A stretch of DNA of 64,000 nt, taken from the IMG/VR virus record IMGVR_UViG_651053022_000007, positions 28,836-92,835 of that record, one strand, 5' to 3'. The notes under the pieces are model-generated. The model ran no database searches. It saw only the letters and a program-made list of their open reading frames with translations, and was not told the origin of the DNA. The stretch is from a virus (taxonomy: Duplodnaviria > Heunggongvirae > Uroviricota > Caudoviricetes). Below, piece by piece: positions 2,508 to 64,000 of the stretch. The translations under genes were made by a program, and so were the position numbers. Numbering within the stretch: the stretch's first letter is position 1; the number at the start of each line of letters is the position of its first letter.

Positions 2508-2516
2508 GGAGAAAAA

Positions 2517-3539: not shown

Positions 3540-3588
3540 CCACCACCGCGGCGCCACGTGCGCCGCACTGCAACCAAGAGAGGTATTC

Positions 3589-3837: not shown

Positions 3838-3946
3838 GTGTGCTGCTAAGGCACTGGAGCAAATGGTCAGGATGGTACTTATTCCTGGCCTCTGTTTCAG
3901 CATGGCTTTATCTGCTGGCATTAATTTTCAGAGAGGGTTGGATTAA

Positions 3947-4889: not shown

Positions 4890-5545
4890 GCCTATATCAA
4901 CGCATCAATGGCGCTGACTGGTGCAATATCTTCGTCGTCGGCGATCTGCATGGGTGCTACACGCTGCTGATGAACGAACTCGACAAAGTTTCATTCGACC
5001 CGGCGCGCGATTTACTTATTTCCGTTGGTGACCTTGTTGACCGCGGCGCTGAAAACCTCGAATGCCTGGATTTGATTACTATGCCGTGGTTCCGAGCTGT
5101 TCGTGGCAACCATGAGCAGATGATGCTGGATGCACTGGTCAACGGCGGAAGTTTCGGACATTGGATGTCAAACGGCGGTGGATGGTGGCACCAACTTGAT
5201 TCTGAGCAGGATGTGCAAATCAAATACCTTCTGCCAAAGATTGCCAACCTCCCGATGATTATCGAACTGGTTACCGGCAATAAGAAGGTCGTCATCTGTC
5301 ACGCAGACTACCCGCACAACGAATACGCATTCGATAAGCAAGTACCAGAAGAAATGGTGATATGGAATCGTGAGCGGGTTAGCGACGCGCAGGACGGTAT
5401 TGTCTCGGAGATAACCGGTGCCGATTTGTTCATCTTCGGTCATACGCCAGCACATCACCCACTGGTGTATGCAAACCAGATGTACATCGACACCGGCGCA
5501 GTGTTCTGCGGAAATCTGACGCTTATCAAAGTCCAGGAAGGATAG
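4886..5545 (+). CDS. lambda-type Ser/Thr protein phosphatase (metallophosphoesterase)
   Basis: Start [12 protein letters not shown] inside ORF 4766..5545; motifs GDLHG, GDLVDRG, GNHE. Confidence 0.75.
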
Positions 5546-5547
5546 AA

Positions 5548-6804
5548 TTATTTATTACTGTCTTCCATCCACTTCTCAAACTTCGACGGGGAGAACGGAA
5601 TCAGATCCGTATGCTCCCCGTCAATCCAGGAATCAATCATATCTGCCCACTGCTGCAACATGTAGGCGCGCTGTCTGGCGTATTCCGCTTTGTTATATAC
5701 GGCGCGCACACCTTTCTGCTCATGTGCCAGAGCCTTTTCAATCCAGTCTGAAGGATAACCAGCCTCATGCAACAACGTACTGGCTGTACGGCGCATATCG
5801 TGTACGGTGAAGTCCTGAATATGCTCACCATCTTCATTTATTATTTTCACCGTTCTGTCGATCAGAGAGTTCAACGCGGCATTAGATAATGGCTTCCGGA
5901 AATTGTAACGACCAGGAACCAGGTATTCACTTCCACCAGCGCACATCTGCAACCCAACCAATATATCCTGTGCTTGTTTAGGCAGGTAAATAACGTGCGC
6001 CCGGCTTCCCTTCATGCGGCCTGAAGGAATTGTCCATGTCCATTTTTTAAAATCTATTTCATCCCACGTTGCATTGGTGAATTCGCCTTTACGAACCATA
6101 GTGATAAGCACCAGCTTTAAAGCCATTTTCATAGTGCCCATAGCACCAATGGCATCCAGCGTGCGGAAGAACAGACCAATTTCTTCTGGTGTCAGTGTTC
6201 GCTCTCGTGGTTTAAATATGGCGATAGACGAAGGTTTAATGTCAGCAGCAGGATTAAACAAACCATGACCACGGTCATTGGCGTGACGGTATACGCTGCT
6301 GATGATCTCCCTGGCCTGTACTGCTGTTGCCCGACCACCGCGTTCGACAATCCGGTCACACAAATCACGAACCATCGATGTGGTAATTTCAGCCATCATT
6401 TTGTTGCCAAGAACCGGAAGTATGTCACGGTCGATCACCGCCTGCTTCATTGCGCGGGTACTTTCAGCCAGGATGACGTGTTTCATATAACTGTCGGTAT
6501 GTACCGCAAACGTCTCGGCACCACGAATCTTTTTGATACCGTCACGTTTAGCCGCAGCCGGCGACTGGCCTGCTTTAAGCAGCTTCTTTGCAGCAATCAG
6601 TTCTTCTCGCGCTTCTGCCAGGCTGATACCGTCACGCCCATACTGCCCGATTACCAGTGTTTCGCGGCGACCGTTGATACGGTAGTCATAGCGAAACGAG
6701 ACCGTACCTGACGTAAGCACAGCTACATACAGCCCGTCACGATCGGAAACTTTGTACAGTTTGTCCTGTGGCTTGAGGTTTTTTAATTTTGTATCGGTAA
6801 GCAC
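5548..6804 (-). CDS. int: tyrosine integrase (P4-type, N-terminal arm-binding domain)
   Basis: 418 aa; MLTDTKLKNLKP...LYVAV N-terminus and C-terminal catalytic region (HDMRRT, Y near C-terminus). Confidence 0.85.
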   Translation of the reverse strand: MLTDTKLKNLKPQDKLYKVSDRDGLYVAVLTSGTVSFRYDYRINGRRETLVIGQYGRDGISLAEAREELIAAKKLLKAGQSPAAAKRDGIKKIRGAETFAVHTDSYMKHVILAESTRAMKQAVIDRDILPVLGNKMMAEITTSMVRDLCDRIVERGGRATAVQAREIISSVYRHANDRGHGLFNPAADIKPSSIAIFKPRERTLTPEEIGLFFRTLDAIGAMGTMKMALKLVLITMVRKGEFTNATWDEIDFKKWTWTIPSGRMKGSRAHVIYLPKQAQDILVGLQMCAGGSEYLVPGRYNFRKPLSNAALNSLIDRTVKIINEDGEHIQDFTVHDMRRTASTLLHEAGYPSDWIEKALAHEQKGVRAVYNKAEYARQRAYMLQQWADMIDSWIDGEHTDLIPFSPSKFEKWMEDSNK

Positions 6805-7121
6805 AATTCACCCGTATAGAAACCATTTTCATGACGGTATGAGAGTATACCTTTAAGGTAATACCGTCACCTGTACCGCCGAAAAATATGGTGTAGAGTG
6901 AATAGAAATGAATACGTAAAAACAAAAACCCTCTGCAAAAACAGAGGGTTGAGTTGGCATCTGAATAGGAATGATTTGCTATGAGTTAGCTGTTAATCAT
7001 TCCCACTCAATTATTTACGGATACCATAACCAATTGAGTGATAACATTTTTCCAAAACTCAATTTTCCTCGTACCGTTTTATATACCGTCACCGGAAATC
7101 AGTACCATGAAAAATGCCATG
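6805..7121. promoter_or_regulatory. integrase upstream region / candidate attP
   Basis: repeated ATACCGTCAC-like motifs, degenerate palindrome ATACC-TTTAA-GGTAA at 6847-6861, hairpin AACCCTCTG..CAGAGGGTT at 6925-6950; lies between int and the lysis cassette. Confidence 0.3.
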
Positions 7122-11908: not shown

Positions 11909-12223
11909 GGTTTGCAATCACCAAATGGAGTGCTTATATTTACCTTTGCGGTAAATTTACAACGCACTCCTCTTGTGCCATAGTAATCGAGCACTGGCAA
12001 AATCCAGTGCCGGGATTGGCGTCCCGGATTACTAAAAGGCGCATTCACCGCGCAAGCGGTTTTTTTATGCGTATAGCACGGCCACATTCGTATTATGGTG
12101 GGCTGTGTGGGGGCACCGAAAGGTGCGCCGGGTCCTTTTAGCCGGTTACGCCAACCCTGCACAGTTCACCACCAACCGATTGGCGTCGGTAGTGGTGATT
12201 AACCAGACTAAAAGGTAACCACT

Positions 12224-35719: not shown

Positions 35720-35751
35720 TCATCGCCCCACTCATCACAATATGCTTCGAC

Positions 35752-35884
35752 CGGTAGGCATGATAAGACGCGTCAGCGTCGCATCAGGCATCTGCGCACG
35801 GTGTCGGATGCGGCGCGAGCGCCTTATCCGACCTACGGTTCAGGCCTGTAGGCATGATAAGACGCGTCAGCGTCGCATCAGGCA
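35752..35884. repeat. two REP-like palindromic units
   Basis: GGCATGATAAGACGCGTCAGCGTCGCATCAGGCA occurs twice; resembles E. coli chromosomal REP elements. Confidence 0.55.
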
Positions 35885-37080
35885 ATTGATGTCTTAGGGC
35901 CGGAGAAACGCAGACGGCGTACCACACAGGAAAAGATCGCAATTGTTCAGCAGAGCTTTGAACCGGGGATGACGGTCTCCCTCGTTGCCCGGCAACATGG
36001 TGTAGCAGCCAGCCAGTTATTTCTCTGGCGTAAGCAATACCAGGAAGGAAGTCTTACTGCTGTCGCCGCCGGAGAACAGGTTGTTCCTGCCTCTGAACTT
36101 GCTGCCGCCATGAAGCAGATTAAAGAACTCCAGCGTCTGCTCGGCAAAAAAACGATGGAAAATGAACTCCTTAAAGAAGCCGTTGAATATGGGCGAGCAA
36201 AAAAGTGGATAGCGCACGCGCCCTTATTGCCCGGCCTGCTCGGCAAGAAAACGATGGAAAATGAACTCCTCAAAGAAGCCGTTGAATATGGACGGGCAAA
36301 AAAGTGGATAGCGCACGCGCCCTTATTGCCCGGGGATGGGGAGTAAGCTTAGTCAGCCGTTGTCTCCGGGTGTCGCGTGCGCAGTTGCACGTCATTCTCA
36401 GACGAACCGATGACTGGATGGATGGCCGCCGCAGTCGTCACACTGATGATACGGATGTGCTTCTCCGTATACACCATGTTATCGGAGAGCTGCCCACGTA
36501 TGGTTATCGTCGGGTATGGGCGCTGCTTCGCAGACAGGCAGAACTTGATGGTATGCCTGCGATCAATGCCAAACGTGCCGATGACTGGAAGGACGGCCGC
36601 CGCAGCCGTCACACGGATGATACGGATGTGCTTCGCCGTATACACCATGTTATCGGAGAGCTACCCACATATGGTTATCGTCGGGTATGGGCGCTGCTTC
36701 GCAGACAAACAGAACTTGATGGTATGCCTGCGATCAATGCCAAACGTGTTTACCGGATCATGCGCCAGAATGCGCTGTTGCTTGAGCGAAAACCTGCTGT
36801 ACCGCCATCGAAACGGGCACATACCGGCAGAGTGGCTGTGAAAGAAAGTAATCAGCGATGGTGCTCTGACGGGTTTGAGTTCCGCTGTGATAACGGAGAA
36901 AAACTGCGGGTCACGTTCGCGCTGGACTGCTGTGACCGTGAGGCACTGCACTGGGCGGTCACAACGGGTGGCTTCGACAGTGAAACAGTACAGGACGTCA
37001 TGCTGGGAGCAGTGGAACGCCGCTTTGGCAGCGAGCTTCCGGCGTCTCCAGTGGAGTGGCTGACGGATAATGGTTCATGC
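35885..37080 (+). mobile_element. IS2 remnant (5'-truncated orfA, 3'-truncated orfB, internal tandem duplications)
   Basis: orfA from codon 2 ([55 protein letters not shown]) and orfB to ..WLTDNGSC; 98-bp duplication at 36137-36333 and 170-bp duplication at 36407-36747. Confidence 0.8.
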
Positions 37081-37452: not shown

Positions 37453-37697
37453 ACGAAGCTAAGGTTGGTAATTAAGGAGTTCTCCACGGGTCAGGTGGAG
37501 TGCGTGCGCCGGACACGGGTGAACATCCGGCACTGACAGTTTACTGAAAGGATATGTCCCTGAAAAGTCAGGGCATAAAGCGAAAGCGCACGGCGAAATT
37601 GGTCTCTCTGTACGGTGTCGTTAAATTTAGTTCGACCGTGCGCTTCCGGTTGTGGCACTCCGCGAAATGGCGCGGCGGTAAGTATGGCGGGGTTATT

Positions 37698-37716
37698 CGG
37701 TTGGATCACCTCCTTA
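37698..37716 (+). rRNA. 16S rRNA 3'-terminal 19-nt fragment (start of an rrn spacer fragment)
   Basis: CGGTTGGATCACCTCCTTA, followed by spacer with tRNA-Ile and tRNA-Ala. Confidence 0.6.
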
Positions 37717-37784
37717 CCTTAAAGAAGCGTACTTTGAAGTGCTCACACAGATTGTCTGATGAAAATGAGCAGTAAAACCTCTAC

Positions 37785-37861
<77 letters not shown>

Positions 37862-37903
37862 AATTTGCACCGCAAATTTGAAGAGGTTTTAACTACATGT
37901 TAT

Positions 37904-37979
37904 GGGGCTATAGCTCAGCTGGGAGAGCGCCTGCTTTGCACGCAGGAGGTCTGCGGTTCGATCCCGCATAGCTCCACCA
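37904..37979 (+). tRNA. tRNA-Ala (anticodon TGC)
   Basis: GGGGCTATAGCTCAGCTGGGAGAGCGCCTGCTTTGCACGCAGGAGGTCTGCGGTTCGATCCCGCATAGCTCCACCA. Confidence 0.85.
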
Positions 37980-37994
37980 TCTCTGTAGTGATTA

Positions 37995-39193
37995 AATAAA
38001 AAAACGATATTGATTTCATCAAACTGCTCATCGTCCATTAACACTCCCGCATGCGTCAGCGCATCCAGCGGTGCTTTCAGGATATTGTCCAGGTCGCGAC
38101 GACGCTTATCCGGTGGCTCTGCAATCACCTTTATCGCCAGCCTTCCGGACAGGTTTAATTTCAGCCGCTGCTGGCGAACAATTAGCGCCACATCACGGCG
38201 ATAACGCTTTCCGGCCTCCGAGATGAAATACGTATTGCCATGACGTCGCCAGTAGGTATTCACCGTCGGCGGGTAAGGCAAAACAAATTCTATGCGTTCA
38301 GTCATACCTCCCAGGCCATGACCAATGATGTGATGCGGATCATCTGCCTGATTACCGCACGTCATGCATTTCTGCGTTTTTACCCAGCGCGTGTATACAG
38401 GCATCTCTTCCCGTTGTGGTTTCTGGCGCTGGAGATACTGAGCCGGAGACTCCGGATCAACGGCGATGCTTACTAACGTCTTTTCCTGGAGTGGGGGCTG
38501 TTGCTGGTGGACGTGAAGTGGCAGCGCAATATTTTTTGTGCGCTGCTTCAGTATGCTGGTGGCAGTCTGTTCTCCCGGTACGATGTCACTCTCACGGTAT
38601 ACGGAGCGGATTTTTTCCACCGGTAATCCCAGTGAACGACACAATACAGACTCCGGAAGCACATCAGCCACCTGATTGCAGACCGCCCACCAGGATAATT
38701 CGGCCAGCGATAACTCCCTCTCCTGCGTACCGCTGATTGCGTGACGGATGACGTCAATCATCCATGCTGACAAGTTTTGGTGAGCAAGTTGCTCAAGTGA
38801 TTCTGAGGTCTGGTCACACAACTGGTTGTCGCAGTGCCAGCACAACACCATTGCGCCGGTACCATAACGGTGAATGACGGTTTCACTGTGGTGATAATCA
38901 CCGTGTGGCCACTGGCAGGATTTAATATGGCGCAACAGCCAGTCAGACAGTGCACCAGCGCCGCCAGCAGCACGAATCACACGCTCATTGCTGAAAAATG
39001 GCAGTAATGATTTATCCTCCGCCAGCGGCTGGCGAACGGCAGGGACGACTCCGGATGGCAGGCCGCACATGCTTTTCGGTTCCGGCTCCACCAGCACTCG
39101 AGGATTATGAAATATCTGTATGGATTCACGGCCCGGCTTAAGGACCACCAGCCCAAGCTCAGGCACCAGAACAGGTCTAAGTAATACCCGCAC
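37995..39193 (-). pseudogene. YdfU-like (DUF968) :: RusA in-frame fusion remnant
   Basis: relative to intact copy at 61442..62860, about 62 codons at the YdfU/RusA boundary are missing (HGLGGM|TERIEFV) and rusA ends at EINIV; ORF 37889..39193 then reads through antisense tRNA-Ala. Confidence 0.6.
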
Positions 39194-39194
39194 G

Positions 39195-39467
39195 TTACCT
39201 CCAGATCCGTTGCTGGAAAGTGCGGGACGGACGTGGTGGGCGTTCGGAATAAGGCAGCCTGACAGAGATTATCCAGTGCCGATAGTCGAGACTGAGAGCT
39301 TTCTTAACCTCGAACCCGCGCCTGCGGTAAGAATGAATCAGCCATTCGGCCTGTTCTTCAGTACATGGTGGGTGTTGGTACCAGTCGGTTTTAAATGCGT
39401 GTGAACGCCGCTCATGCCGGATGGCAAGGTCGGTATCAGAATTGTGAAATTTGGTTTTGTGCGCCAT
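39195..39467 (-). CDS. nin-region hypothetical protein
   Basis: 90-aa ORF; C-terminal 60 aa conserved upstream of the second ydfU-like copy. Confidence 0.35.
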   Translation of the reverse strand: MAHKTKFHNSDTDLAIRHERRSHAFKTDWYQHPPCTEEQAEWLIHSYRRRGFEVKKALSLDYRHWIISVRLPYSERPPRPSRTFQQRIWR

Positions 39468-39634
39468 CTGTTTTCTCTGCTGGCGCAGCAGGTGTCAGGT
39501 GTTCAGGCTGACGTGCGAATTGTAAACCAGAATGCCAGGAAAAAACAAAACCCGCCGAAGCGGGTTAAGTGCGGGTGCGTTGAGGATGCCTGACACATCA
39601 GAGGTGGCGAGGGATTTCTCCCCCGCCGGGTCTC

Positions 39635-39790
39635 TTACTCCTCAGGTTCGTAAGCTGTGAAGACAGCGACCTCCGTCTGGCCGGTTCGGATTCGTACCTC
39701 GCAGAGGTCTTTCCTCGTTACCAGTGCCGTCACTATGACGGTTAAACAGATGACGATCAGGGCGATTAACATCGCCTTTTGCTGCTTCAT
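39635..39790 (-). CDS. hokD: Hok/Gef-family type I toxin
   Basis: 51 aa MKQQKAMLIALIVICLTVIVTALVTRKDLCEVRIRTGQTEVAVFTAYEPEE; not in supplied track. Confidence 0.75.
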   Translation of the reverse strand: MKQQKAMLIALIVICLTVIVTALVTRKDLCEVRIRTGQTEVAVFTAYEPEE

Positions 39791-39807
39791 AGCCTGCTTC
39801 TCCTTGA

Positions 39808-40127
39808 CCTTTCGGTCCGTAAGAGGCTAATCTCTATGTGTCGCATAGATATGGCCTCAGATTAATGTTAAGCGTCTTGCAGGACGCGTAATGTTAACTG
39901 GGGCTTTTCTCTATCTGCCTTTTGGTGTTCATGCCTGAGACAGATAGCCTCAAGCACCCGCACCCTTGCCTTTCGGCACGTAAGAGGCTAACCTACATTT
40001 GTGAGACATAGATTGGGCCTCAGATTAATGTTAAGCGTCTTGCAGGACGCGAAATGTTAACTGGGGCTTTTCTCTATCTGCCTTTCAGTGTTCATGCCTG
40101 AGACAGATAGCCTCAAGCACCCGCAGC
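39808..40127. repeat. tandem direct repeat, 2 x about 160 bp, immediately upstream of hok
   Basis: units 39808-39968 and 39969-40127, a few percent diverged, each with internal palindromes. Confidence 0.6.
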
Positions 40128-40189
40128 CATTCTACTTAACTCACGTCACCTCGCCAATATGAAATCAATCAGAAAGGTGATCCATAAAA

Positions 40190-40876
40190 TTACTCCTTCT
40201 CTTCTTTTCCGTAGTGGAGTTGGCCAATTTTGATAAGAGGGCGTCCCTGAGATTTGCGGTGTAGATTGGTATCGCGCAGAGAATACACACAGCCACAATA
40301 TTCCTGCTGATAGAATTTTTCGCGCTTGCTGATTTCAATCATACGGGACGAGCCGCCCTGCTTGCGCCAGTTATAATCCCAGTACACCATACCCGGATAA
40401 TGCGCAACAGCTCGCCGCCCACACTCGTTAACCTGCTGCATATTTTTCCAGCGTGAAATGCCCAGTGAACTGCTGATCACACTGAAACCATTTTCAGCAG
40501 CGTACAACGCTGTCCGCTCAAAACGCATGTCAAAACACATGGTACAACGGATCCCCCTCTCAGGCTCCCATTCCATTCCTTTGGCACGTTCAAACCAGTT
40601 GTCGGTGTCGTAATCAGCATCGATAAACGGCACGCCGTGTTGTTCAGCAAAGCGAATATTTTCATCCTTACGAATTAAATACTCTTTCTGAGGATGAATG
40701 TTCGGGTTGTAGAAAAAGATGGTGTAGTCGATTCCCGAGGCCTGAAGCGCCTCCATCACTTCACCGGAACATGGAGCACAGCAAGAGTGCAGTAGTAGTT
40801 TGTTTGCCCCGTTTGGGAGCTCCAATTTAGGCCGTTTGAAATCAGCAATAGTCATAAATATTTTTATTGGGGTCAT
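40190..40876 (-). CDS. queH: epoxyqueuosine reductase QueH-like (DUF208)
   Basis: 228 aa; [11 protein letters not shown] motif and conserved Cys pattern. Confidence 0.65.
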
Positions 40877-41029
40877 GAAAATAGCACAGAGTGTAGCATC
40901 AGAGCAGGGCTATCGGGAATATATGTCTAAATCTGGTAATATCTGGTTTTGACGCAAAGCGGACAACCACGCTGGCTCTACCCTGCGCCATGAAAATGTC
41001 AATTCACATCTGAACTAATGCTCTTTAAT

Positions 41030-41428
41030 CTAGTAACGTCTAAAATACCTAACATTTCCTTGATAAAATGCCAGTACACGCTGCATAGCTTCGCTCTTCC
41101 GGCACTCGCCGTCTGGTAACGACCAGATAAGGTCCGGATCAACCACTGCAGGTTTCTTCACCTTTGCCCTTGAGAGTTTTTTGCGAGCATTTTGCCAGTC
41201 CTTACGCGCCTGTTCAGACGGGAATAACCCGTAACCAGAGTTGTATACATCGCCACTGGCAACCAGCTCTCTGGCGAGAACACTCATCAGATATCTTGTC
41301 GCACCTGTCTTGGCTTCCAGTTGCCGCAACGTCTCGCGACCGCTCAGACGTACAAGTTCAACAACCTGCCCTTTAATTTTTTCCCGCTCTTCTTGTGTAA
41401 ATACTTTTGCCATAAGCGCCTCCGGCAA
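41030..41428 (-). CDS. hypothetical phage protein
   Basis: 132-aa ORF. Confidence 0.4.
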   Translation of the reverse strand: MPEALMAKVFTQEEREKIKGQVVELVRLSGRETLRQLEAKTGATRYLMSVLARELVASGDVYNSGYGLFPSEQARKDWQNARKKLSRAKVKKPAVVDPDLIWSLPDGECRKSEAMQRVLAFYQGNVRYFRRY

Positions 41429-42199
41429 TCACTTTTCCGATACAACACGGCGGGAAGAATCAGTAATCTGTCGAACAATATCCCGGTGCTTGTTCAGCTC
41501 CCGCAGCGCGGCGCAGACTCGCTCCCACTTCTGAACATCACTTTTCGCCCTGCGCAGCGCCAGGTTTGCCCTGCGAAGGGACGGAAAAATCAGCTCATCT
41601 GCTTGCGTTTCGGTAAACGATGGCAACGGCTGCACAATGTCCGCCACAGTTTCTGTTTTAATTTCTTCCTGTGTTGCGGCTTCCCGGACTGGTAACGCAG
41701 CACCTGCTGGCTGAGGAAAGGCCTTACCATCACTTTCCGTTACCAGCGCGGCTTTCGGCTCTGCTGGTAAATTATCGCCCGGCATGCAGTAACGAAATTT
41801 ACCGTTCTGATTAACGCGTGCCAGCCGCCCCGTTGCGGTTACCACCGCCAGCGTGGAAGCAACCTTGCGAGTACTGACACCGAACTTACCCGCCAGTTCC
41901 TCACACGTTTTAGCCCCATCCTGACCGATAAACTCAATCATCATGTCTGCGGTAACTTTTTGTTCGACCTCCCCGGTCAGCATATCCTGTGCTTCAGATT
42001 TTACTGGCCGCTCTTCGGTTACCCGGGATTCACCTTCGCCAGCCAGAAACCAGGTGTGACCAGTTTTATCAACGACGCCTTTTCTTTTGAGTTCCCACAG
42101 CTCGTTGACAGCCTCTTCACGACTGATTCCAAGGCGAGCTGCCACCACATGTGAAGAGGCTTTTTTCAGTGCTTTCAGTGCGTCAGATACGGTTTCCAT
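41429..42199 (-). CDS. DUF1627-like phage protein
   Basis: 256 aa; N-terminal HTH-like segment; downstream of DnaC-like gene. Confidence 0.45.
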   Translation of the reverse strand: METVSDALKALKKASSHVVAARLGISREEAVNELWELKRKGVVDKTGHTWFLAGEGESRVTEERPVKSEAQDMLTGEVEQKVTADMMIEFIGQDGAKTCEELAGKFGVSTRKVASTLAVVTATGRLARVNQNGKFRYCMPGDNLPAEPKAALVTESDGKAFPQPAGAALPVREAATQEEIKTETVADIVQPLPSFTETQADELIFPSLRRANLALRRAKSDVQKWERVCAALRELNKHRDIVRQITDSSRRVVSEK

Positions 42200-42220
42200 T
42201 AAAATTTCCTCCGGACAAAA

Positions 42221-42967
42221 TTACTTCACAACCCTCATATTGCTGACATTTGGACGCCAGCTATCCCAGTTAAACGTCACCCATCGACCACCGTTCATGG
42301 TCATGCGGTCCATAATCCTCTCACCAAGAAGCGTACTCATTGCGGCATGATTCAGGTTTGTTAACATCCCGACACTGCACAGTGATGCTGTCCGGCGATC
42401 AATTATCTGGTGCAATACCACCTGCTCGTTTTTCGTCTCCCGCTGAACGCCTATTTCATCCAGGACCAGCAAATCAACCCCGCAAAGCTCCTGTAAAAAT
42501 TTTTCCCCGGATTTGCCGTTGTCGTAGCTGTCATGCAACACGCTCATGACGTCAGACACGGTGACGATAATCACGCTGCGCCCCTTCACCATCAGCCGGT
42601 TGCCCATCGCCGCTGCAAGGTGATTTTTCCCGGTGCCGGTTTTACCGCTGAACACAAAATTCGTGCACCCGGTCATCAGTTCGTCAGCTATGGATTTGGC
42701 CTGGCTCAGCGCGTATTTTTGCCCGTCGTTCTGCACCTGATAATTTGCAAACGAGCATTTGCTGTGCAGAGGCTGGATGCCCGAACGATTCAGGATTTTT
42801 TCCACCCGCAACTGGCGATTCTGGCGGTTAATCTCCTCGCTGCGTTTTCGTCCTTCAGCAAGTTGCCATTCCCGCCACTCCTCCACCGTCCGGTACGGTG
42901 GAACCGACCCCTGTGGTGCAAGTCTGCGAATACGTTCAAGAACCCCAACTGCCGCAATGTTTTTCAT
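42221..42967 (-). CDS. DnaC-like replication ATPase (helicase loader)
   Basis: 248 aa; Walker A GKTGTGKNHLAAA and Walker B LLVLDEIG. Confidence 0.7.
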   Translation of the reverse strand: MKNIAAVGVLERIRRLAPQGSVPPYRTVEEWREWQLAEGRKRSEEINRQNRQLRVEKILNRSGIQPLHSKCSFANYQVQNDGQKYALSQAKSIADELMTGCTNFVFSGKTGTGKNHLAAAMGNRLMVKGRSVIIVTVSDVMSVLHDSYDNGKSGEKFLQELCGVDLLVLDEIGVQRETKNEQVVLHQIIDRRTASLCSVGMLTNLNHAAMSTLLGERIMDRMTMNGGRWVTFNWDSWRPNVSNMRVVK

Positions 42968-43023
42968 GACACGTCACCCCCTGAATCCCGGCGGTATTTC
43001 AGTGTCCGGTTCAGAAATGTGAT

Positions 43024-45093
43024 TCACGCAACGCGGGGTTCCAGGGTCACCCACTGTGGAATGAGGCCAAAATGCTGCGGCCAGAAGCTGATGCGCTGTT
43101 CATCAGGGACTATGGTGGCAACCAGTTGTTGCAGGCCAGTCTCCGGTGCACAGGCCGAAGAGGTGGTGTTCTGAGCATCATCTAACGGGATTTCATCGGT
43201 CATAATGGCAGATTGCGCTTCGCGTGATTGCTTAAGCCACCATTTAATGGTGTCCCGATCAATGACTCCGCCAGCAGTTTCCAGATCGATAGTCTTACTA
43301 AATTCCGGTCCCATATCTCCGGTTTGCGGATCGAAAAATATTGCATCTATTGAGATAATCGGGGCATCAGGATTTTTTCCCATGGTTTCAAGGTCAATCA
43401 TCAGATGGTGCCACAACCTGCTGGTGGATGTGCTTTTACGATGACTGTTCACCTTAATTAAGGGATTTGCTGTCTCGCCTATTTCATTATTGTCATTGGC
43501 ATGTTGATCGCCTTCGGTGCACTCCTTGTTCGGGAGTCCGGCATTTTCTATTTCCTCTGGATCTTTTTCCCGGGCTTCATCCTGGCTTTCTTCGTTGAAT
43601 GTCTCCTGGTAGGTTGCGTCACCCATCACTGCGCCACAATCAGGGCAGTTACCACCACCAGTCTGATTGCATGCGGTACAAACTTTTTCCTCTTCCTGTT
43701 GCACGACTGGTTCAGGTTGTTTCGTTTCTGGCTCGTTTTGTAACGCATTTTGGCTGTTTTGTTCCGCTTTTTGGTCGTACTGTTCCGTTTCTGACTGGTT
43801 CTGGTGCACAGAATCGCGGGTTTCAATCCCCTTCACCCATTTCGGATCATTCGGGTCGCTAATCCCTTCAACAAATTCACCACGTGATGCAGCGAGCAAC
43901 TTATTAGCGTCAGGCTGGCTGATACTGGCTGCCTGCATAATTTTGTTTACTTCGTCAGCGGTAACTTTTACCAGGTCTGGTTGTGCGGTCGTGTCAGATG
44001 CATCAGTATTTTGTTGTGAACCTGTGTATGTGCCGTTTTTGCGGGCAAAATATTCTTCTTTCGTGATTTCAGTTGCCCCGGCAGCCAGCGCCTTATCCAG
44101 ACCAGAAAGTTTGTTTGCGCGACCGTATTTTTCGCCATCCTTGTCGGTGAAGAGGAAGTAGAACGGCCCCTCACGCTCTACAGATGGTTCGACTTCCACT
44201 TTGCATTCGGTTTTTTCGTTGTCCGGAATTGCCGTTTCCACTGCATCAGTTTCTGGTACTGGCGACGAGAGAGTATCAGTTGCGCTCTGATTTCTTCCTT
44301 CATCTTCAAACACGCCCTTTGTAGTCAGGTATTCAGTAATGTATTTGTTCAGTGCCACAGGGTCTTTGTGAATGTCGATCGGACGTTCACGGACAAGGCC
44401 AAAAATAGTCTGGCGGTCGTAGCGAAGGGCATCAGGCTGTTTGCGCATTGATGCCGAGATACGCTTCCAGTCTTCGCGGTCGTTGTCGATAACTTCTTTT
44501 TTTGCCCAGCGATGGATGCTGCCGTCAATGTTTCCGGCATCCACATCACCAGGCCAGAGAGCGTAGGCCAGTTCGTCATCCAGTGTTTTCCATGTCTGCT
44601 TGTATTCGCGATGAATGGCAGCAATGACCGGGCTGATTTTTCCTGTTGAATTTTCAGTGTACTGTTGATTGGCTCTGGCGCGGGCGAGATCAACAACAGA
44701 CGTGTATTTTCCGGTTTCCTTGCGTTCACCTTCACGACGTTTTTTCCAGATGCGCATCTCTGCCTGAATTTCGGGCCATTTGGCACCAGGCTTACATTTA
44801 TGCTTAACCCACCCGATGGCATGCAGCTTAAGCTCCGGATACATGGCGTTAACTTCTGGCATTTTCATCAACGCTTCAACGATATGTCCGTCGAATGTTG
44901 CCATGTCTTCCTGCAACAATTCCTGTGCGCTAATAACCATATCAACGGTGATGTTTTCACATGTGTCGAACTTAACCATGACAGCGTTCTGTACTTCAGG
45001 GGCCAGCTTGTCAAAAGTGACGTTCATCGGATCGGATTCAGTCTCAACCGGGACAAAAGAAGCAGACTCCTCATCCCAGCGGTTTTCCTGCAT
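43024..45093 (-). CDS. chimeric exonuclease ORF: RecE-like central region plus DEDD 3'-5' exonuclease domain
   Basis: 689 aa; KLLAASRGEFVEGISDPNDPKWVKGI and CTACNQTGGGNCPDCGAVMGDATYQETF match RecE middle region; C-terminal IDLETMG exo-I-like motif. Confidence 0.45.
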   Translation of the reverse strand: MQENRWDEESASFVPVETESDPMNVTFDKLAPEVQNAVMVKFDTCENITVDMVISAQELLQEDMATFDGHIVEALMKMPEVNAMYPELKLHAIGWVKHKCKPGAKWPEIQAEMRIWKKRREGERKETGKYTSVVDLARARANQQYTENSTGKISPVIAAIHREYKQTWKTLDDELAYALWPGDVDAGNIDGSIHRWAKKEVIDNDREDWKRISASMRKQPDALRYDRQTIFGLVRERPIDIHKDPVALNKYITEYLTTKGVFEDEGRNQSATDTLSSPVPETDAVETAIPDNEKTECKVEVEPSVEREGPFYFLFTDKDGEKYGRANKLSGLDKALAAGATEITKEEYFARKNGTYTGSQQNTDASDTTAQPDLVKVTADEVNKIMQAASISQPDANKLLAASRGEFVEGISDPNDPKWVKGIETRDSVHQNQSETEQYDQKAEQNSQNALQNEPETKQPEPVVQQEEEKVCTACNQTGGGNCPDCGAVMGDATYQETFNEESQDEAREKDPEEIENAGLPNKECTEGDQHANDNNEIGETANPLIKVNSHRKSTSTSRLWHHLMIDLETMGKNPDAPIISIDAIFFDPQTGDMGPEFSKTIDLETAGGVIDRDTIKWWLKQSREAQSAIMTDEIPLDDAQNTTSSACAPETGLQQLVATIVPDEQRISFWPQHFGLIPQWVTLEPRVA

Positions 45094-45109: not shown

Positions 45110-45281
45110 GAATCGAGGGCAGGGCGGGGTATACCGGGTTTATCCTCGCAGACAAGAAATTTATAAGCGCAGTCCTGAGCAGCCGGATAATGTTTGAATC
45201 GAGGGCAGGGCGGGGTATGCCAGGTTTATCCTCGCAGACAATAAATTTATAAGCGCAGTCCTGAGCAGCCGGATAATGTTT
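45110..45281. repeat. tandem direct repeat, 2 x 86 bp
   Basis: units 45110-45195 and 45196-45281 with 3-4 mismatches, just upstream of the 43024..45093 start. Confidence 0.5.
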
Positions 45282-45573
45282 TTTCGGTTTTAAACGTTTT
45301 GCTTTTGGTATACGTCATCGCGGTGAATGTGCCGTCCTGGTTGGGAAACACGCCGTACACCAGAGATTCGTTGTTGCCAAGATCGATAGTATCCATGTTG
45401 ACCTCATTTCCCCTTAACGCCGGGGTAGCGGAACAAAAACCTGCTGCATAGTTATTAAAGTTGATTCAATTTTCAGCTTGATCCAGATTTTTAAAGAGCA
45501 AATATCTCAAACATCACCCGAAGATGAGTTTTGAGATATTAAGGCAGGTGACTTTCACTCACAAACCAGCAAG

Positions 45574-45649
45574 TGGCGTCCCCTAGGGGATTCGAACCCC
45601 TGTTACCGCCGTGAAAGGGCGGTGTCCTGGGCCTCTAGACGAAGGGGAC
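45574..45649 (-). tRNA. tRNA-Glu (anticodon TTC)
   Basis: reverse complement reads GTCCCCTTCGTCTAGAGGCCCAGGACACCGCCCTTTCACGGCGGTAACAGGGGTTCGAATCCCCTAGGGGACGCCA. Confidence 0.85.
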
Positions 45650-45734
45650 GTATCAGTCTGCTTCGCAAGACGCCTTGCTTTTCACTTTCTATCAGACAAT
45701 CTGTGTGAGCACTGCAAAGTACGCTTCTTTAAGG

Positions 45735-46781
<1,047 letters not shown>

Positions 46782-54982: not shown

Positions 54983-55276
54983 CGAAAACCTGCTGTACCG
55001 CCATCGAAACGGGCACATACAGGCAGAGTGGCCGTGAAAGAAAGCAATCAGCGATGGTGCTCTGACGGGTTCGAGTTCTGCTGTGATAACGGAGAGAGAC
55101 TGCGTGTCACGTTCGCGCTGGACTGCTGTGATCGTGAGGCACTGCACTGGGCGGTGACTACCGGCGGCTTCAACAGTGAAACAGTACAGGACGTCATGCT
55201 GGGAGCGGTGGAACGCCGCTTCGGCAACGATCTTCCATCGTCTCCAGTGGAGTGGCTGACGGATAATGGTTCATGC
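54983..55276 (+). mobile_element. IS2 orfB internal fragment
   Basis: ...[45 protein letters not shown]...WLTDNGSC, ending at the same codon as the copy at 37080. Confidence 0.7.
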
Positions 55277-57854: not shown

Positions 57855-58134
57855 GGAGTTTACTCACATCTGACAAAATCAATATAAACAGCCCCTCCGG
57901 AGAGGGGCTGGAGAGTGGCGCTATGTGCCATTGCATGGTGCCGGGTGCCTCCCGGTGAATTCAGTACCAGCACCTGAATCCGCGATTATCCCATATACCT
58001 ACTCGCTGATTGCCCCTCCGCACAGGGGGATTCACCATGCCAGTTTCTTTTAACAAACTCCCCGCAAACCAGACAACAATCAACCGCCTGAATTGTGAAG
58101 TATTTAAAAATTTCTCCCGCTAACTGATACCCGG

Positions 58135-58221: not shown

Positions 58222-58568
58222 TATCCGGCTGCCCGAAGTTCATCCATACCACAGGTCCTGGCTATTCTGTTGTACTCCTGAACAAGAGTAAATAATTCTG
58301 AATTAGCCACCATGAACTCATCGCAAACCCTCTGTATAGCATCACTATTCAGAATAATAACGTCTCTTCCCGAAAGACGATCAGGAGTACAGAACAAAAC
58401 TGTCAAACGGCTGAAGGCCTTTGCTCGTGCTGCATTGACTATATCAATACGCTGCCTAAGGATGAAACACCCCGACGCCTCATCAATATTCACTCTACCC
58501 ACACCATATGAATGATAAATATTTAATGCTGAAAAAACCATTAGACCGTATAACAAACACTCAATCAA
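58221..58568 (-). CDS. hypothetical protein, AT-rich cargo downstream of tRNA pair
   Basis: 115-aa ORF in low-GC DNA. Confidence 0.35.
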   Translation of the reverse strand: MIECLLYGLMVFSALNIYHSYGVGRVNIDEASGCFILRQRIDIVNAARAKAFSRLTVLFCTPDRLSGRDVIILNSDAIQRVCDEFMVANSELFTLVQEYNRIARTCGMDELRAAG

Positions 58569-58681
58569 TACTTAACAGAACTTTTATTTTTGACAAACAT
58601 AAAATATTTTCAACAATATCCTGAGCCAGGTATATTTCAGTATAAGGCTCTGCCGGAAGGAATCTGGAAGAATGAATATAG

Positions 58682-58755
58682 CGCGCTGTACTGGATTCGA
58701 ACCAGTGACCGATTGCTTAGAAGGCAATTGCTCTGTCCGGCTGAGCTAACAACGC
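58682..58755 (-). tRNA. tRNA-Arg (anticodon TCT), no encoded CCA
   Basis: reverse complement GCGTTGTTAGCTCAGCCGGACAGAGCAATTGCCTTCTAAGCAATCGGTCACTGGTTCGAATCCAGTACAGCGCG folds as cloverleaf. Confidence 0.7.
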
Positions 58756-58855
58756 TGAATACCGATAATGGACCGCCATCGGGGACCCGCCCCCGCACCA
58801 ACAACCCTGTTATCGTGTCGTCTGCTCTTCCTGATAAGCTAATGGCGGTTTGTGA

Positions 58856-58931
58856 TGGTGGCCCTTGCTGGATTTGAACCAGCGACCTGGCGATTATGAG
58901 TCGCTCGCTCTCACCACTGAGCTAAAGGGCC
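58856..58931 (-). tRNA. tRNA with CAT anticodon (Ile2/lysidine-type or Met)
   Basis: reverse complement GGCCCTTTAGCTCAGTGGTGAGAGCGAGCGACTCATAATCGCCAGGTCGCTGGTTCAAATCCAGCAAGGGCCACCA. Confidence 0.8.
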
Positions 58932-58980
58932 GGGAGCAGAATAATAATGGTGCGTAATTAATTCTGCAATCTCATCCGTT

Positions 58981-60030
58981 TCAAACGATTAAACCCTGAA
59001 CTTCCCTGACTGTCTGCTCAAAACGTCCGGTCTCCAGCTCAACGCCAATCGCACGACGCCCGAGCGCCAGTGCCGCTTTTACCGTTGAACCTGAGCCCAT
59101 AAAAAAATCTGCAACCAGGTCACCCGGACGACTGCTTGCGCTGATTATCTGCTGCAGCATTTCTGCCGGTTTTTCGCACGGATGTTTCCCGGGATAGAAC
59201 TGCACCGGTTTATGTGTCCACACATCCGTGTACGGCACCTGCGCCGTCACACCAAAATACCGCCGCAGATGCTTATATTCACTCTGCAGCTCCACATACT
59301 GCCGGTTCAGTGACGTATACGTATCCACCAGCTGGTGGTGGGGCTTTTCCAGTTCACCGCGCTGATGTTTCTCTTCTGCCACCCGGGCAAACAGCGACTG
59401 TAATTTCAGATAATCGCTTTCGTTCGGTAGCTGCCACTGACTGGCACTGAACCAGTGCGACACCATGTTTTTCTTTCCTGTGGCATCTGCAATCTGTTTT
59501 GCCGTTATCCCCAGGGCCGCGCGCGCATCACGAAAGTAAGAAATCAGCGGGGCCATCACATGCTGTTTCAGTGCACTGCCCTTCGCCGCATACCCGGCAT
59601 CTTTCGGACGATACGGCCCCTGATAATGTTCCGCGAACAGAATGCGCTCTGTGGCGGGGAAATACGCCCGCAGGCTTTCCTTGTTGCATCCGTTCCAGCG
59701 TCCGGACGGCTTCGCCCAGATAATATGGTTCAGCACACTGAAGCGTTCACGCATCATGATTTCGATATCAGATGCCAGGCGATGACCACAGAACAGGTAA
59801 AGACTTCCGGCAGGTTTCAGCACCCGCCAGAACTGCGCCAGACACTGGTCCAGCCACTTCAGGTAATCATCGTCGCCCTTCCACTGGTTATCCCAGCCCT
59901 CAGGCTTCACTTTAAAGTACGGCGGGTCCGTGACTATCAGGTCAACAGAATTTTCGGGTAACGACCGGATAAATTCCAGGCAGTCGGCGTTGATTAACTC
60001 ACAACTGGATATTTTTACAGTATTAGCCAT
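58981..60030 (-). CDS. DNA methyltransferase (N6-adenine/N4-cytosine class, DPPY motif)
   Basis: 349 aa; DLIVTDPPYF and FFMGSGST motifs. Confidence 0.75.
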   Translation of the reverse strand: MANTVKISSCELINADCLEFIRSLPENSVDLIVTDPPYFKVKPEGWDNQWKGDDDYLKWLDQCLAQFWRVLKPAGSLYLFCGHRLASDIEIMMRERFSVLNHIIWAKPSGRWNGCNKESLRAYFPATERILFAEHYQGPYRPKDAGYAAKGSALKQHVMAPLISYFRDARAALGITAKQIADATGKKNMVSHWFSASQWQLPNESDYLKLQSLFARVAEEKHQRGELEKPHHQLVDTYTSLNRQYVELQSEYKHLRRYFGVTAQVPYTDVWTHKPVQFYPGKHPCEKPAEMLQQIISASSRPGDLVADFFMGSGSTVKAALALGRRAIGVELETGRFEQTVREVQGLIV

Positions 60031-60181
60031 AGATCAATAAGCACTTCTCTGATAGGCTCATACCGCTTTTGCGCAAAGCAGATGGGCCTGAGGTTTGCTT
60101 GTGACCCCAACGCATGAGCAGATGGCTGGTGGGTGCCCCTAACACCCACCAGCCGCCCATTTACCACAAATAAAAAAGCCT

Positions 60182-60379
60182 TCACTGCGGAAGGCGTCTG
60201 TAACAACCGAACTGATAGTCTGCCAGACCCGCCATAACCAGCTGGGTCAGTATTAACTGGCAGCGTTCGCGTGAAAGGTAAGTATTCTGCGCAATCTCCC
60301 CGGCTGTCGCCGGTTCGGTGACGCTTAATTCATTAAACACCACTCTGGCGGTTTCTGTCATATCCTGCTGTTTCAGCAT
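60182..60379 (-). CDS. small hypothetical protein
   Basis: likely start MLKQQDMTE within ORF 60182..60466. Confidence 0.3.
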   Translation of the reverse strand: MLKQQDMTETARVVFNELSVTEPATAGEIAQNTYLSRERCQLILTQLVMAGLADYQFGCYRRLPQ

Positions 60380-60605
60380 GTCTTTTTCCCTTTTCCGGTT
60401 AACGTGACACACCAATAACTCTTGTCGAAAAAGCCAGCAAGCTGAAAGACAGGTATTCACCGCCACCAGCGCGTTTACTGTACTGACGCGATTTCAGTCA
60501 TAAAAAACCCGCCAGGCGGCGGGGTGTAAAAAATCTTCTAACGTCAGGCATAAAACGCCCATCGTTAGAGCAAATTTACCACAGATTCGGGAAAAATCAA
60601 CAACA

Positions 60606-61427
60606 CTATCGCGTTACCCTCTTTAACTGCCGCTCCGCCCATGCCTCTTCAATGTCAAACCGAACCACCAACGTATCGTAAAAGCGTTTCACTGATTTTT
60701 TCCACGTATCAAGCGTGATAGCACTCGTCACTTTGCATATGGCATTAAATGCCTCCGTTGATGGTAGTCTTTCACAGCCACGACCACCACAACGCTGGCA
60801 GTCTCTGATAACAGGCATACCACGTTTTACCGACTCTTCACGATGAATGGCGACACCACGCCCACGGCAATCCTTACAGGCGGTGGAAACCTCACCCTTT
60901 CCGCCACACTCCGGACAGGCAACTTTTACCACTTCCTTGACTTTTTTCCATTCTTCCCAGTAAGACGAATACACACCTTTCGTACACTTTGCCCATACCG
61001 GCGGCTTACCATCCGGATACTGGACCTTGTTTGTAAAAACTACGCTTTCAATAAATTTTTCCCCATAGCAACAAGGGCACTGCTTTTTACTCGCTACGCT
61101 GCGGGCATAATCCTCAAAAGCGTACGAAGCCATAATGCGCATCACTACCGGTTTTATTTCTGCCGGAAGTTTTCTCAACGCCGCCACACGATCGCACCGA
61201 CTGAGTGCATAATCTGCCAGTAATTCTGTTGCCCGCGCCCTGTCATTCATACTGATGCCCATTTTCCCCAGGAACGCAGAAAACCCCATCTCAGCCCGAT
61301 TCTGTGTCATGCCCTGCGCGGCCATCACATCAGTGATACTCAGCGCATCTTTCGACGTTGAGGCCGATGCATCAGTCAGGCCGGGGGATTTTGGGGAGTA
61401 GTATTTCGGTAAATCTTCCAGTTTCAT
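60606..61427 (-). CDS. lambda-type late antiterminator Q
   Basis: 273 aa; similar to lambda Q (FHSPKSP-like YYSPKSP, DVMAA.GM, ASYAFEDYARS, Cys clusters, C-terminal TWKKSVKRFYDTLVV). Confidence 0.75.
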   Translation of the reverse strand: MKLEDLPKYYSPKSPGLTDASASTSKDALSITDVMAAQGMTQNRAEMGFSAFLGKMGISMNDRARATELLADYALSRCDRVAALRKLPAEIKPVVMRIMASYAFEDYARSVASKKQCPCCYGEKFIESVVFTNKVQYPDGKPPVWAKCTKGVYSSYWEEWKKVKEVVKVACPECGGKGEVSTACKDCRGRGVAIHREESVKRGMPVIRDCQRCGGRGCERLPSTEAFNAICKVTSAITLDTWKKSVKRFYDTLVVRFDIEEAWAERQLKRVTR

Positions 61428-61441
61428 TTTTTGACCTGCTC

Positions 61442-61804
61442 TTAATGCATTATGGGGTAAATCTTCACCCCCAGACGTCCACCAGATACTGGCTGACCAC
61501 GAACGATATTGATTTCATCAAACTGCTCATCGTCCATTAGCAACCCCGCATGCGTCAGCGCATCCAGCGGCGCTTTCAGAATATTGTCCAGATCACGGCG
61601 GCGCTTATCCGGTGGTTCTGCAATAATTTTTATTGCCAACCTTCCGGACAGGCTTAATTTCAGCCGCTGCTGGCGAACAATAAGCGCCACTGCCCGGCGA
61701 TAACGCTCCCCGGCTTTTGATACAAAATATGTGCTGCCACGACGACGCCAGTAAGTGTTCACCGTTGGCGGGTAAGGCAAAACAAATTCTATGCGTTCAG
61801 TCAT
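61442..61804 (-). CDS. rusA: RusA Holliday junction resolvase
   Basis: 120 aa; LPYPPTVNTYW...PDKRRRDLDNILKAPLDALTHAG. Confidence 0.8.
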   Translation of the reverse strand: MTERIEFVLPYPPTVNTYWRRRGSTYFVSKAGERYRRAVALIVRQQRLKLSLSGRLAIKIIAEPPDKRRRDLDNILKAPLDALTHAGLLMDDEQFDEINIVRGQPVSGGRLGVKIYPIMH

Positions 61805-62860
61805 TCATGCTTTCCACTTCAGGACACCCGAATTTCTCGCGTGCATTAAAAAACGAATCAGCAACAACAGCTGGCTGCCGTGTTTTTCTTCAAAATCTTT
61901 TACCCCGGCGTGCAGTTCGTTATGACATTTACGGCACAGCGGAATAACAAACAAATCATCAGCCTTTGTTCCCATCCCTCCCAGTCCATGACCAATGATG
62001 TGATGCGGATCATCTGCCTGATTGCCACACGTCATGCATTTCTGCGTTTTTACCCAACGCGTGTATACAGGCATCTCTTCCCGTTGTGATTTCTGGCGCT
62101 GGAGATACTGAGCCGGTGACTCCGGATCAACGGCAATGCTGACCACCGTCTTTTCCTGTGGCGGGTTTTGCTGGTGGGCGTGAGGCAGCGGCGCAAGATT
62201 TTTTGTGCGCTGCTTCAGTATGCTGGTGGCGGTCTGCTCTCCCGGTACGATGTCGCTTTCACGGTACATTGAGCGGATTTTTTCCGCACGCAACCCCAGC
62301 GAACGACGTAATACCGCTTCCGGTAGCGCGTCCGCCACCTGATTGCGGACCGCCCACCAGGATAATTCAGCCAGCGATAATTCCCGTTCCTGCGAGCCAT
62401 TCATTGCATGGCGTATGACGTCAATCATCCATGCAAACAGGTTTTGGTGAGCAAGTTGCCCGAGTGATTCGGAGGTCTGGTCGCGCAGCTGGTTGTCGCA
62501 GTGCCAGCACAACACCATTGCGCCGGTACCATAACGGTGAATGACGGTTTCACTGTGGTGATAATCGCCGTGTGGCCACTGGCAGGATTTAACATGGCGC
62601 AGTAACCAGTCAGACAATGCGCCAGCGCCACCAGCAGCACGAATCACTCGTTCGTCGCTGAAAAATGGCAGTAATGATTTATCCTCCGCCAGCGGCTGGC
62701 GAACGGCAGGAACGACCCCGGACGGCAGATTACGCATGCTTTTCGGTTCCGGCTCCACCAGTACCCGGGTATTGTGGAATACCGGCATGGATTCACGGCC
62801 CGGCTTAACGATCACCAGCCCGAGTTCCGGTACCAGAACAGGTCGAAGTAATACCCGCAC
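61805..62860 (-). CDS. YdfU-like (DUF968) protein with HNH-like C-terminal Cys/His motif
   Basis: 351 aa; CMTCGNQADDPHHIIGHGLGG...IPLCRKCHNELHAG. Confidence 0.6.
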   Translation of the reverse strand: MRVLLRPVLVPELGLVIVKPGRESMPVFHNTRVLVEPEPKSMRNLPSGVVPAVRQPLAEDKSLLPFFSDERVIRAAGGAGALSDWLLRHVKSCQWPHGDYHHSETVIHRYGTGAMVLCWHCDNQLRDQTSESLGQLAHQNLFAWMIDVIRHAMNGSQERELSLAELSWWAVRNQVADALPEAVLRRSLGLRAEKIRSMYRESDIVPGEQTATSILKQRTKNLAPLPHAHQQNPPQEKTVVSIAVDPESPAQYLQRQKSQREEMPVYTRWVKTQKCMTCGNQADDPHHIIGHGLGGMGTKADDLFVIPLCRKCHNELHAGVKDFEEKHGSQLLLLIRFLMHARNSGVLKWKA

Positions 62861-63174
62861 GTTACCTCCAGATGCGTTGCTGGAATGTGCGGGACGGACG
62901 CGGTGGGCGTTCAGAGTAAGGAAGCCTGACGGAGATTATCCAGTGACGATAATCGAGGCTGAGGGCTTTCTTAATCTCGTATCCGCGTCTGCGGTAGTTA
63001 TGAATTAGCCATTCGGCCTGTTCTTCAGTACATGGTGGGTGTTGCGTGCCGGTGATTACCGCGCTCCGGGATCACTGGCCGGAATGATTGAACAGGCCTG
63101 GTGCAGTGCCCTGGGGGTGGATGCCGGATGCCATGCCACGCTGGTGCATTTTCCGGCCTGGCCGGCACACCGGG

Positions 63175-63270: not shown

Positions 63271-63320
63271 TGTCCCTGCCTCCATTCAGTCGATGATGCG
63301 CATAATGGCGCTGCATTGAG

Positions 63321-63427
63321 CTGCTGGAAACGCAGACCGTGGACTTCAGCGTGGGTGCTGAAGGGCTTCGCCATGTACCGGGGGATGTCATTGAAATCTG
63401 CGATGATGACTATGCCGGTATCAGCAC
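63321..63427 (+). pseudogene. J-like internal fragment, second copy
   Basis: same ~110 bp as 46614-46732 ([35 protein letters not shown]). Confidence 0.5.
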
Positions 63428-63790: not shown

Positions 63791-64000
63791 GGAATTGAAG
63801 GCTGGCAAGAAGGTAAATTAGAAGGTTTGCAGCAAGGTAAATTGGAGGGTTTGCAGAAAGGTAAATTAGAAGGTTTGCAGGAAGGCATGCATGAGCAAGC
63901 CATTAAAATTGCCTTGCGCATGCTGGAGCAGGGCTTTGAACGTGAGATTGTGCTGGCGGCAACCCAACTCACTGATGCTGATATTCCGAACTGTCATTAA
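63791..64000 (+). pseudogene. Rpn (YhgA-like) nuclease family C-terminal fragment
   Basis: GKLEGLQ repeats then [33 protein letters not shown] stop. Confidence 0.4.

Follow-up and report, generated by a model that had tools for sequence, protein, structure and literature searches.

A tandem hok/sok leader in an Escherichia coli prophage record as the probable product of a k=39 de Bruijn assembly

The hok locus and its two leader copies

The window (the whole stretch of 64,000 nucleotides that was analyzed, positions 28,836 to 92,835 of the IMG/VR record IMGVR_UViG_651053022_000007) carries on its minus strand a short open reading frame whose product is MKQQKAMLIALIVICLTVIVTALVTRKDLCEVRIRTGQTEVAVFTAYEPEE. 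This product matches the Pfam family HOK_GEF (PF01848) with E=1.2e-23 and a score of 82.9 bits (cutoff 22), and the counterpart of the gene in E. coli strains 4/0 and AZ189 is annotated hokD (WP_000813254.1). A first-pass annotation, made from the letters alone, had proposed a Hok/Gef-type toxin of 51 aa at this place, and the PF01848 match bears this out; judged by its sequence, the frame is clearly a Hok/Gef toxin gene, the toxicity of which is predicted. The gene for QueH adjoins the 5′ side of hok, a hypothetical gene, DUF968 and RusA follow on the 3′ side, and DUF977 and DUF1627 were found by Pfam farther upstream, beyond QueH. The set of QueH, DUF977, DUF1627, hok, DUF968 and RusA is that of a lambdoid prophage early region. 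No relBE genes were found by Pfam among the neighboring genes in the window, as had also been remarked in the first pass.

On the 5′ side of hok, and on the same strand, two copies of a leader of 162-163 nt stand head-to-tail (Table 1, in which P1 and P2 denote the two prophages to which the parts are attributed below). The copies, designated A and B, are 90-93% identical to each other, and each is a full-length match to Rfam family RF01794 (E ~1e-23), with a bit score far above chance and above the gathering score of 59. The earlier proposal that the palindrome-rich repeats sit where the mok/sok leader would lie is therefore upheld, the palindromes being the hairpins of the hok leader. In the comparison with known hok leaders, both repeats fit the family model and each spans the stretch of the Sok gene; because both are hok leaders, the reservation that they might bear no likeness to such leaders falls away.

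The promoter scan places the hok mRNA promoter of P1 just 5′ of leader B. In 4/0 and AZ189, the P2 locus carries a separate TAGAAT box 5′ of leader A; the window includes no promoter for leader A because the flank that would precede it has been omitted. A putative Sok promoter, antisense to the leader, can be read in each copy; the two were assigned by their position relative to what we take to be the site of the sok promoter of plasmid R1, and a simple consensus promoter scan flagged neither of them. The mok-like frame of leader A, the stop codon of which overlaps the start codon of hok, would by analogy serve as a translational coupler to hok. Differences between the two alleles cluster in the mok-start hairpin and at the 5′ end of Sok, and are ordinary allelic variation among hok loci. 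In E. coli O26:H11 11368 (1884627-1884955), a single hokD leader is a mosaic, in which the 5′ part is identical to leader A and the 3′ part to leader B, so that the hok loci of prophages would seem to recombine frequently.

When a single-leader mRNA of 420 nt is reconstructed (39959..39540), its predicted fold has a free energy of -172.8 kcal/mol (z = -7.5), and nucleotides 1-12 are predicted to pair with CCUCAACGCACCC near the 3′ end in both the minimum free energy (MFE) fold and the centroid fold. The structure prediction that had been proposed in the first pass thus yields a single-leader transcript with its 5′ end predicted to pair with the 3′ fbi-like element. Two weaker Rfam matches were discounted, namely an isrK-like match at 39545-39626 (27 bits, gathering score 50), which reflects a resemblance to the hok terminator hairpin, and a ceN48 match (24 bits), which was regarded as noise.

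Table 1. Coordinates of the hok locus, its flanks and the repeats discussed in the text
Feature	Position	Strand	Basis or remark
hok ORF (HokD/HokW type, 51 aa)	39635..39790	-	Pfam; annotated hokD at matching position
Leader allele A (proximal copy; attributed to the P2 hok locus as its true leader)	39801..39962	-	RF01794, 106.7 bits; match to 4/0 and AZ189
Leader allele B (distal copy; attributed to the P1 hok locus as its true leader)	39963..40125	-	RF01794, 101.1 bits; match to AZ189 P1
mok-like frame of leader A, 19 codons	39787..39846	-	Read from sequence; TGA stop overlaps hok ATG (ATGA)
P1 hok mRNA promoter, TTGGCG-17-TAGAAT	40129..40157	-	Promoter scan
Putative Sok promoter, allele A, TTGACC-18-TAATCT	39804..39833	+	Read from sequence
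Putative Sok promoter, allele B, TTGCCT-17-TAACCT	39966..39994	+	Read from sequence
fbi-like 3′ fold-back element, CCTCAACGCACCCGC	39571..39585	-	MFE fold of reconstructed single-leader mRNA
Intrinsic terminator after fbi-like element	39549..39566	-	Terminator scan
Collapsed hok core, common to P1 and P2 in the assembly graph	39340..39800	-	Exact 38-mers at both bounds
P2 downstream flank: hypothetical gene, DUF968, RusA fragment	38003..39339	-	4/0 L007; Pfam
P1 upstream flank: QueH (40190..40876), DUF977, DUF1627, DnaC/IstB-like ATPase	40126..43034	-	AZ189 L006, 99.9-100%; Pfam
Displaced P1 downstream part: DUF968, RusA, Q, methyltransferase, tRNAs	58233..63044	-	AZ189 L006 6662-11473, 99.2%
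Probable artefactual join of leader A and leader B	39962..39963	.	Absent from genomes searched
Tandem in IS2-like element, 99 nt	36137-36333		Same 38-nt rule
Tandem in IS2-like element, 171 nt	36399-36748		Same 38-nt rule
Tandem of 86 nt, 96.5% identical, just upstream of 689-aa ORF (43024..45093)	45110-45281		Same boundary rule
Alternative-allele pair	36787-37080 and 54983-55276		
Alternative-allele pair	46613-46722 and 63318-63427		
Alternative-allele pair	38003-38305 and 61502-61804		

Boundaries of the tandem and the k-1 = 38 signature

The positions at which the two leader copies begin and end follow a simple rule. On the plus strand, the first differing base of the two alleles (39963 C vs 39801 T) is where copy 2 starts, and copy 1 runs to exactly 38 nt past the last differing base. 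The natural upstream continuations of the two leaders differ one base past a 39-mer that they share (P2 GAATGA/CTGCGGG..., P1 GAATGG/CTGCGGG...), and because of this divergence a leader A node must end at 39962 at k=39, as is observed. The true next base, G, is missing after copy 1 because the 39 nt that are common to both natural loci constitute a node of a single k-mer.

All four tandems of the window obey this rule, with copy 2 beginning at the first difference and copy 1 extending 38 nt beyond the last. Two of the others lie in an IS2-like element of the IS3 family at 35.9-37.1 kb, where the copies are 94-96% identical, and the doubled HTH_21 hit of the transposase results from these two internal variant duplications; they are assembly artefacts arising from diverged IS copies. 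The remaining tandem (45110-45281) is presumably another serialized variant pair. The 689-aa ORF beside it, which has an Rv2179c-like exonuclease domain, contains an array of 21 nt x 4 (71% matches) at 43717-43800, and a second array, of 24 nt x 3.9 (84% matches), occurs at 63793-63885; these arrays may be iterons or coding repeats.

The length distribution of exact repeats carries the same signature through the window. Seventeen maximal exact repeats are exactly 38 nt long, and each other length between 20 and 40 nt is represented 0-7 times; only three exact repeats exceed 40 nt (52, 54, and 78 nt). Leaders A and B share one exact 38-mer (at 39925 and 40088), and many short segments are alternative alleles that have exactly 38 identical bases at both ends and no further extension (three pairs are given in Table 1). 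In a real stretch of E. coli DNA containing IS copies and two prophages of 90% identity, the repeat spectrum would be smooth, with repeats of kilobase length besides, and the spike at 38 nt is the mark of a de Bruijn graph built at k=39. The strict form of this expectation, that no 39-mer occurs twice in the window, failed, as there are 75 repeated 39-mers; these derive from the repeats of 52, 54, and 78 nt, which are attributed to repeat nodes resolved by the assembler.

These boundaries bear on the possibility that the tandem is real, in which case two prophages would have undergone illegitimate or unequal recombination at their hok loci, leaving a single locus that has two leaders and two sok genes and yields a hok mRNA longer by 163 nt. 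Such an origin would be in keeping with the completeness of both copies by the Rfam model, with the plausible antisense promoter in each, with the retention of the hok promoter by the distal copy, and with the 7-10% divergence, which could in principle reflect two parental loci. The junction, however, shows no microhomology and coincides exactly with de Bruijn node boundaries, as do the junctions of the independent tandems elsewhere in the window, and real recombination is for these reasons, together with those given in the next three sections, regarded as extremely unlikely.

Origin of the leaders and their flanks

The first 6 kb of the window are 100% identical to several ST131 genomes, and the leaders and flanks of the hok locus can each be placed in finished genomes of this lineage. 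Window 38303-39962, from DUF968 through the hypothetical gene and hok to leader A, agrees at 99.94% identity with a single-leader prophage locus of ST131 strain 4/0 (L007), and the match ends exactly at 39962. Beyond that point, the window follows the P1 locus of AZ189 (L006), at 99.9% identity over 39963-41109 and 100% over 41106-43034. The continuation of P1 on the other side of hok is found in a displaced segment (58233-63044), which ends exactly 38 nt before the first difference between P1 and P2. The two halves of this early/late-control region of P1 (39963-43034, on the QueH side, and 58233-63044) lie 15 kb apart in the window, and they are contiguous around hokD in AZ189. The 38-mer at 39340 recurs at 63007, at the end of the P1-specific segment, and that at 39925 recurs at 40088, so that an exact 38-mer marks each bound of the hok core. 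That the downstream part of P1 should be found ~20 kb away, with the same 38-nt overlap at its end, also argues against recombination in the organism.

The finished chromosome of AZ189 has both loci, one at 0.71 Mb and the other at 5.19 Mb, with a single leader each: the hokD at 712,015-712,170 carries leader A, and the hokD at 5,189,967-5,190,122, beside QueH, carries leader B. In a three-way alignment, each AZ189 leader is identical to one of the window copies, and 163 nt of the window are left unmatched. The two antisense-RNA genes, or the altered fold-back structure, that had been suggested for a single locus in the first pass find no support once the tandem is taken as not real, because the copies are alleles of two prophages, each of which has a single leader in ST131.

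Two strains in the library, or a mixed culture, might have supplied the alleles in place of two prophages of one genome, and the de Bruijn bubble would look identical for paralogous variants and for variants from different cells. Against this, the single complete ST131 genome AZ189 has both loci with exactly these leaders and flanks, and the P1- and P2-specific flanks of the window match ST131 genomes at 99-100%; two paralogous prophages therefore suffice, and a mixed origin of what would still be an artefact seems very unlikely.

The downstream flank of the P2 hok locus is itself composite. Window 38003-38305 is 100% identical to L007, positions 6661-6828 of which are skipped before the next block, so that two P2-specific graph nodes have been joined with 168 nt missing relative to 4/0. 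An ORF of 434 aa (37889-39193, minus strand), in which DUF968 seems to be fused to RusA, extends into tRNA-Ala. This false fusion results from the joining of the P2 nodes minus the 168 nt and then of an rRNA-spacer contig, and the ORF is not a real gene.

Other signs of a patchwork record

Two fragments of rRNA spacer, both ~290 nt long, occur in the window. In the first (37697-37995), tRNA-Ile(GAT) and tRNA-Ala(TGC), at 37785-37979, follow the last bases of 16S rRNA, GGTTGGATCACCTCCTTA; the fragment stops ~15 nt past tRNA-Ala, where a truncated RusA gene starts. The second (~45465-45745), on the other strand, contains tRNA-Glu(TTC) and the 3′ end of 16S rRNA. No rRNA genes were found in the window. 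Spacers without rRNA cannot be a real arrangement, and small contigs have been concatenated into the record. The position in the 4/0 genome that would be expected from collinearity with window 1-6000 holds housekeeping genes, and the window is therefore not collinear with that finished genome. Since the surroundings of the tandem are in this way demonstrably a patchwork of contigs, the case for a real tandem is weakened further.

Several other elements were observed in the window. Two REP/BIME-like copies, consisting of a 37-40-nt repeat, lie at 35751-35884 directly before the IS2-like fragment, with an naRNA4 match of 70 bits at 35757-35833. At 11991-12176 on the plus strand, Rfam isrK (77.9 bits) and C4 antisense RNA (77.7 bits) are matched side by side at gathering level, and the pair resembles the immunity/antirepressor control regions of prophages of P1/P7 or Gifsy type. 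The Rfam sRNA STnc100 (132 bits) is matched at 57880-58069 on the minus strand, beside prophage tRNA-Arg and tRNA-Met (58681-58931).

Searches for the junction in other genomes

The junction 39962/39963 was sought with a 64-nt probe centered on it, under a limit of E<=1e-9 that nothing but a true junction would pass, and no match was obtained in 20,395 records from 5,426 complete E. coli genomes. A longer query of 121 nt was uninformative, as single-leader loci scored 99% with it through swapped halves over a span of 162 bp. A degenerate pattern of the junction (leader end, 4-12 nt, leader start) was found neither in IMG/VR nor in the JGI metagenomes, and among GTDB representatives it had one match, in a Bacteroidetes MAG. 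By our own estimate, ~2 hits are expected by chance in GTDB (21 specified bases, 9 gap lengths, 596 Gb, two strands), and the match is at chance level.

The locus itself is common. A 661-bp hok query matched 4,939 of the 5,426 complete E. coli genomes, at a median of 2 places per genome and nearly always at loci annotated hokD, and it also matched 102 phage records, including those of 933W and Sp5. The good matches to this query all span <=499 bp and not 661 bp, and the loci concerned therefore have a single leader.

The absence of the junction from the complete genomes and the three other collections counts against recombination as its source; by itself it does not argue away a duplication private to one strain. 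Such a private recombination, which would give one isolate two non-identical sok genes and a two-leader hok mRNA, is barely credible when the evidence is taken together. If the join were nevertheless real, the extra leader could be a decoy for Sok or a second checkpoint on Hok translation.

A model for the origin of the tandem

The tandem leaders are, with very high probability, those of the single-leader hok/sok loci of two prophages, which a k=39 de Bruijn assembler strung together, as judged from comparisons of sequence. The source genome would be that of an ST131-like E. coli with two related lambdoid prophages, P1 and P2, each of which would have one ordinary hok/sok locus of the hokD/hokW type with a single leader. 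The two loci would share a near-identical hok core and differ in the leader of ~162 nt and in the outer flanks. The assembler would have collapsed the shared core, so that the hok ORF belonging to P1 was absorbed there, and the alternative leader nodes would then have been laid down serially and not in two loci. The resulting order would be P2 downstream part, shared hok, leader A, leader B, and then the P1 promoter, QueH, and the genes beyond. The tandem of ~160-bp palindrome-rich copies described in the first pass accordingly stands as a feature of the assembled record; the boundary rule, the absence of the junction elsewhere, and the splitting of the flanks speak against its presence in the DNA of the organism.

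The Velvet paired-end scaffolder typically concatenates node sequences minus their first k-1 bases, and we infer that the assembler was Velvet. Plain end-to-end joining of two contigs was considered and rejected, because leader B is without the 38-nt left overlap that the free-standing contigs of the window have; the join of A and B seems to have arisen within the assembler, by concatenation of nodes. Gapless joins of this kind make the entire window a patchwork of contigs.

Each of the two natural loci would be expected to function in the manner of the hok/sok paradigm. By analogy, the full-length hok mRNA would be inert, with its 5′ end paired with the 3′ fbi element, and trimming of the 3′ end would allow the mRNA to refold. 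Antisense Sok RNA, transcribed from the promoter inside the leader, would pair with the mok initiation region, leading to decay of the mRNA and a block of coupled Hok synthesis. This mechanism is carried over from the paradigm and from the validated hokW-sokW locus, which is 92% identical (PMC8621323).

Comparison with known systems

One close relative is hokW-sokW of the Stx2 prophage Sp5 and phage 933W, which belongs to the same class of prophage position and likewise has a Hok-family toxin and a leader with an antisense sok. The nucleotide identity is ~92% over the locus, and AF125520 and AP000422 are annotated with mokW, hokW, and sokW. The difference from hokW-sokW is one of allele only, as the structure is the same once the second leader, taken as artefactual, has been removed. 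The sokW promoter has been validated in Sp5, and the toxicity of Hok and its neutralization by Sok have been demonstrated for hokW-sokW (PMC8621323).

The Hok sequence differs little or not at all from that of E. coli hokD (relF), which PGAP annotates in thousands of genomes (WP_000813254.1/WP_000813262.1). Among K-12 derivatives, the match is confined to the ORF and the 3′ part (query 397-660, 99.2%). The Qin copy of K-12 presumably has no leader and adjoins relBE. Compared with K-12 hokD, the loci of the window type are intact prophage versions without relBE.

With hok/sok of plasmid R1, the loci described here share the pairing of a tac-like 5′ end with an fbi-like 3′ element, a mok-like frame, an antisense promoter in the leader (putative in the present case), and the Hok ORF, and they differ in being chromosomal and prophage-borne. 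The mok-like frame is also short here (19 codons) and ends at the start of hok, whereas mok of R1 presumably overlaps most of hok.

A precedent for the assembly itself is ST131 strain NA114, whose "complete genome" was made by ordering Velvet contigs, built from paired reads of 54 bp, on SE15 and concatenating them; a mixture of prophage and island fragments, ~160 kb in all, lies upstream of dnaJ (PMC4134206). The window shares with this misassembly the ST131 background and the gapless patchwork of prophage, IS, and rRNA-spacer contigs, and its k-1 = 38 overlaps are compatible with the 54-bp reads of NA114. What was described for NA114 is the misplacement of contigs, and not the serial placement of the branches of a bubble (PMC4134206).

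Implications

Short-read contigs assembled at k=39 and strung together without gaps make up the window and, probably, the entire record. Tandem duplications, gene fusions, orphan tRNAs, and odd juxtapositions in the record are consequently suspect; this applies, for instance, to the ORF that fuses DUF968 to RusA, to the repeated stretches of IS2, and to the rRNA spacers that stand apart from any rRNA gene. The spike of 38-nt exact repeats provides a cheap test that requires no reference, and it could be used to flag such records automatically. Once the artefact is removed, what remains is two conventional type I toxin-antitoxin loci of the hokD/hokW type, both already annotated.
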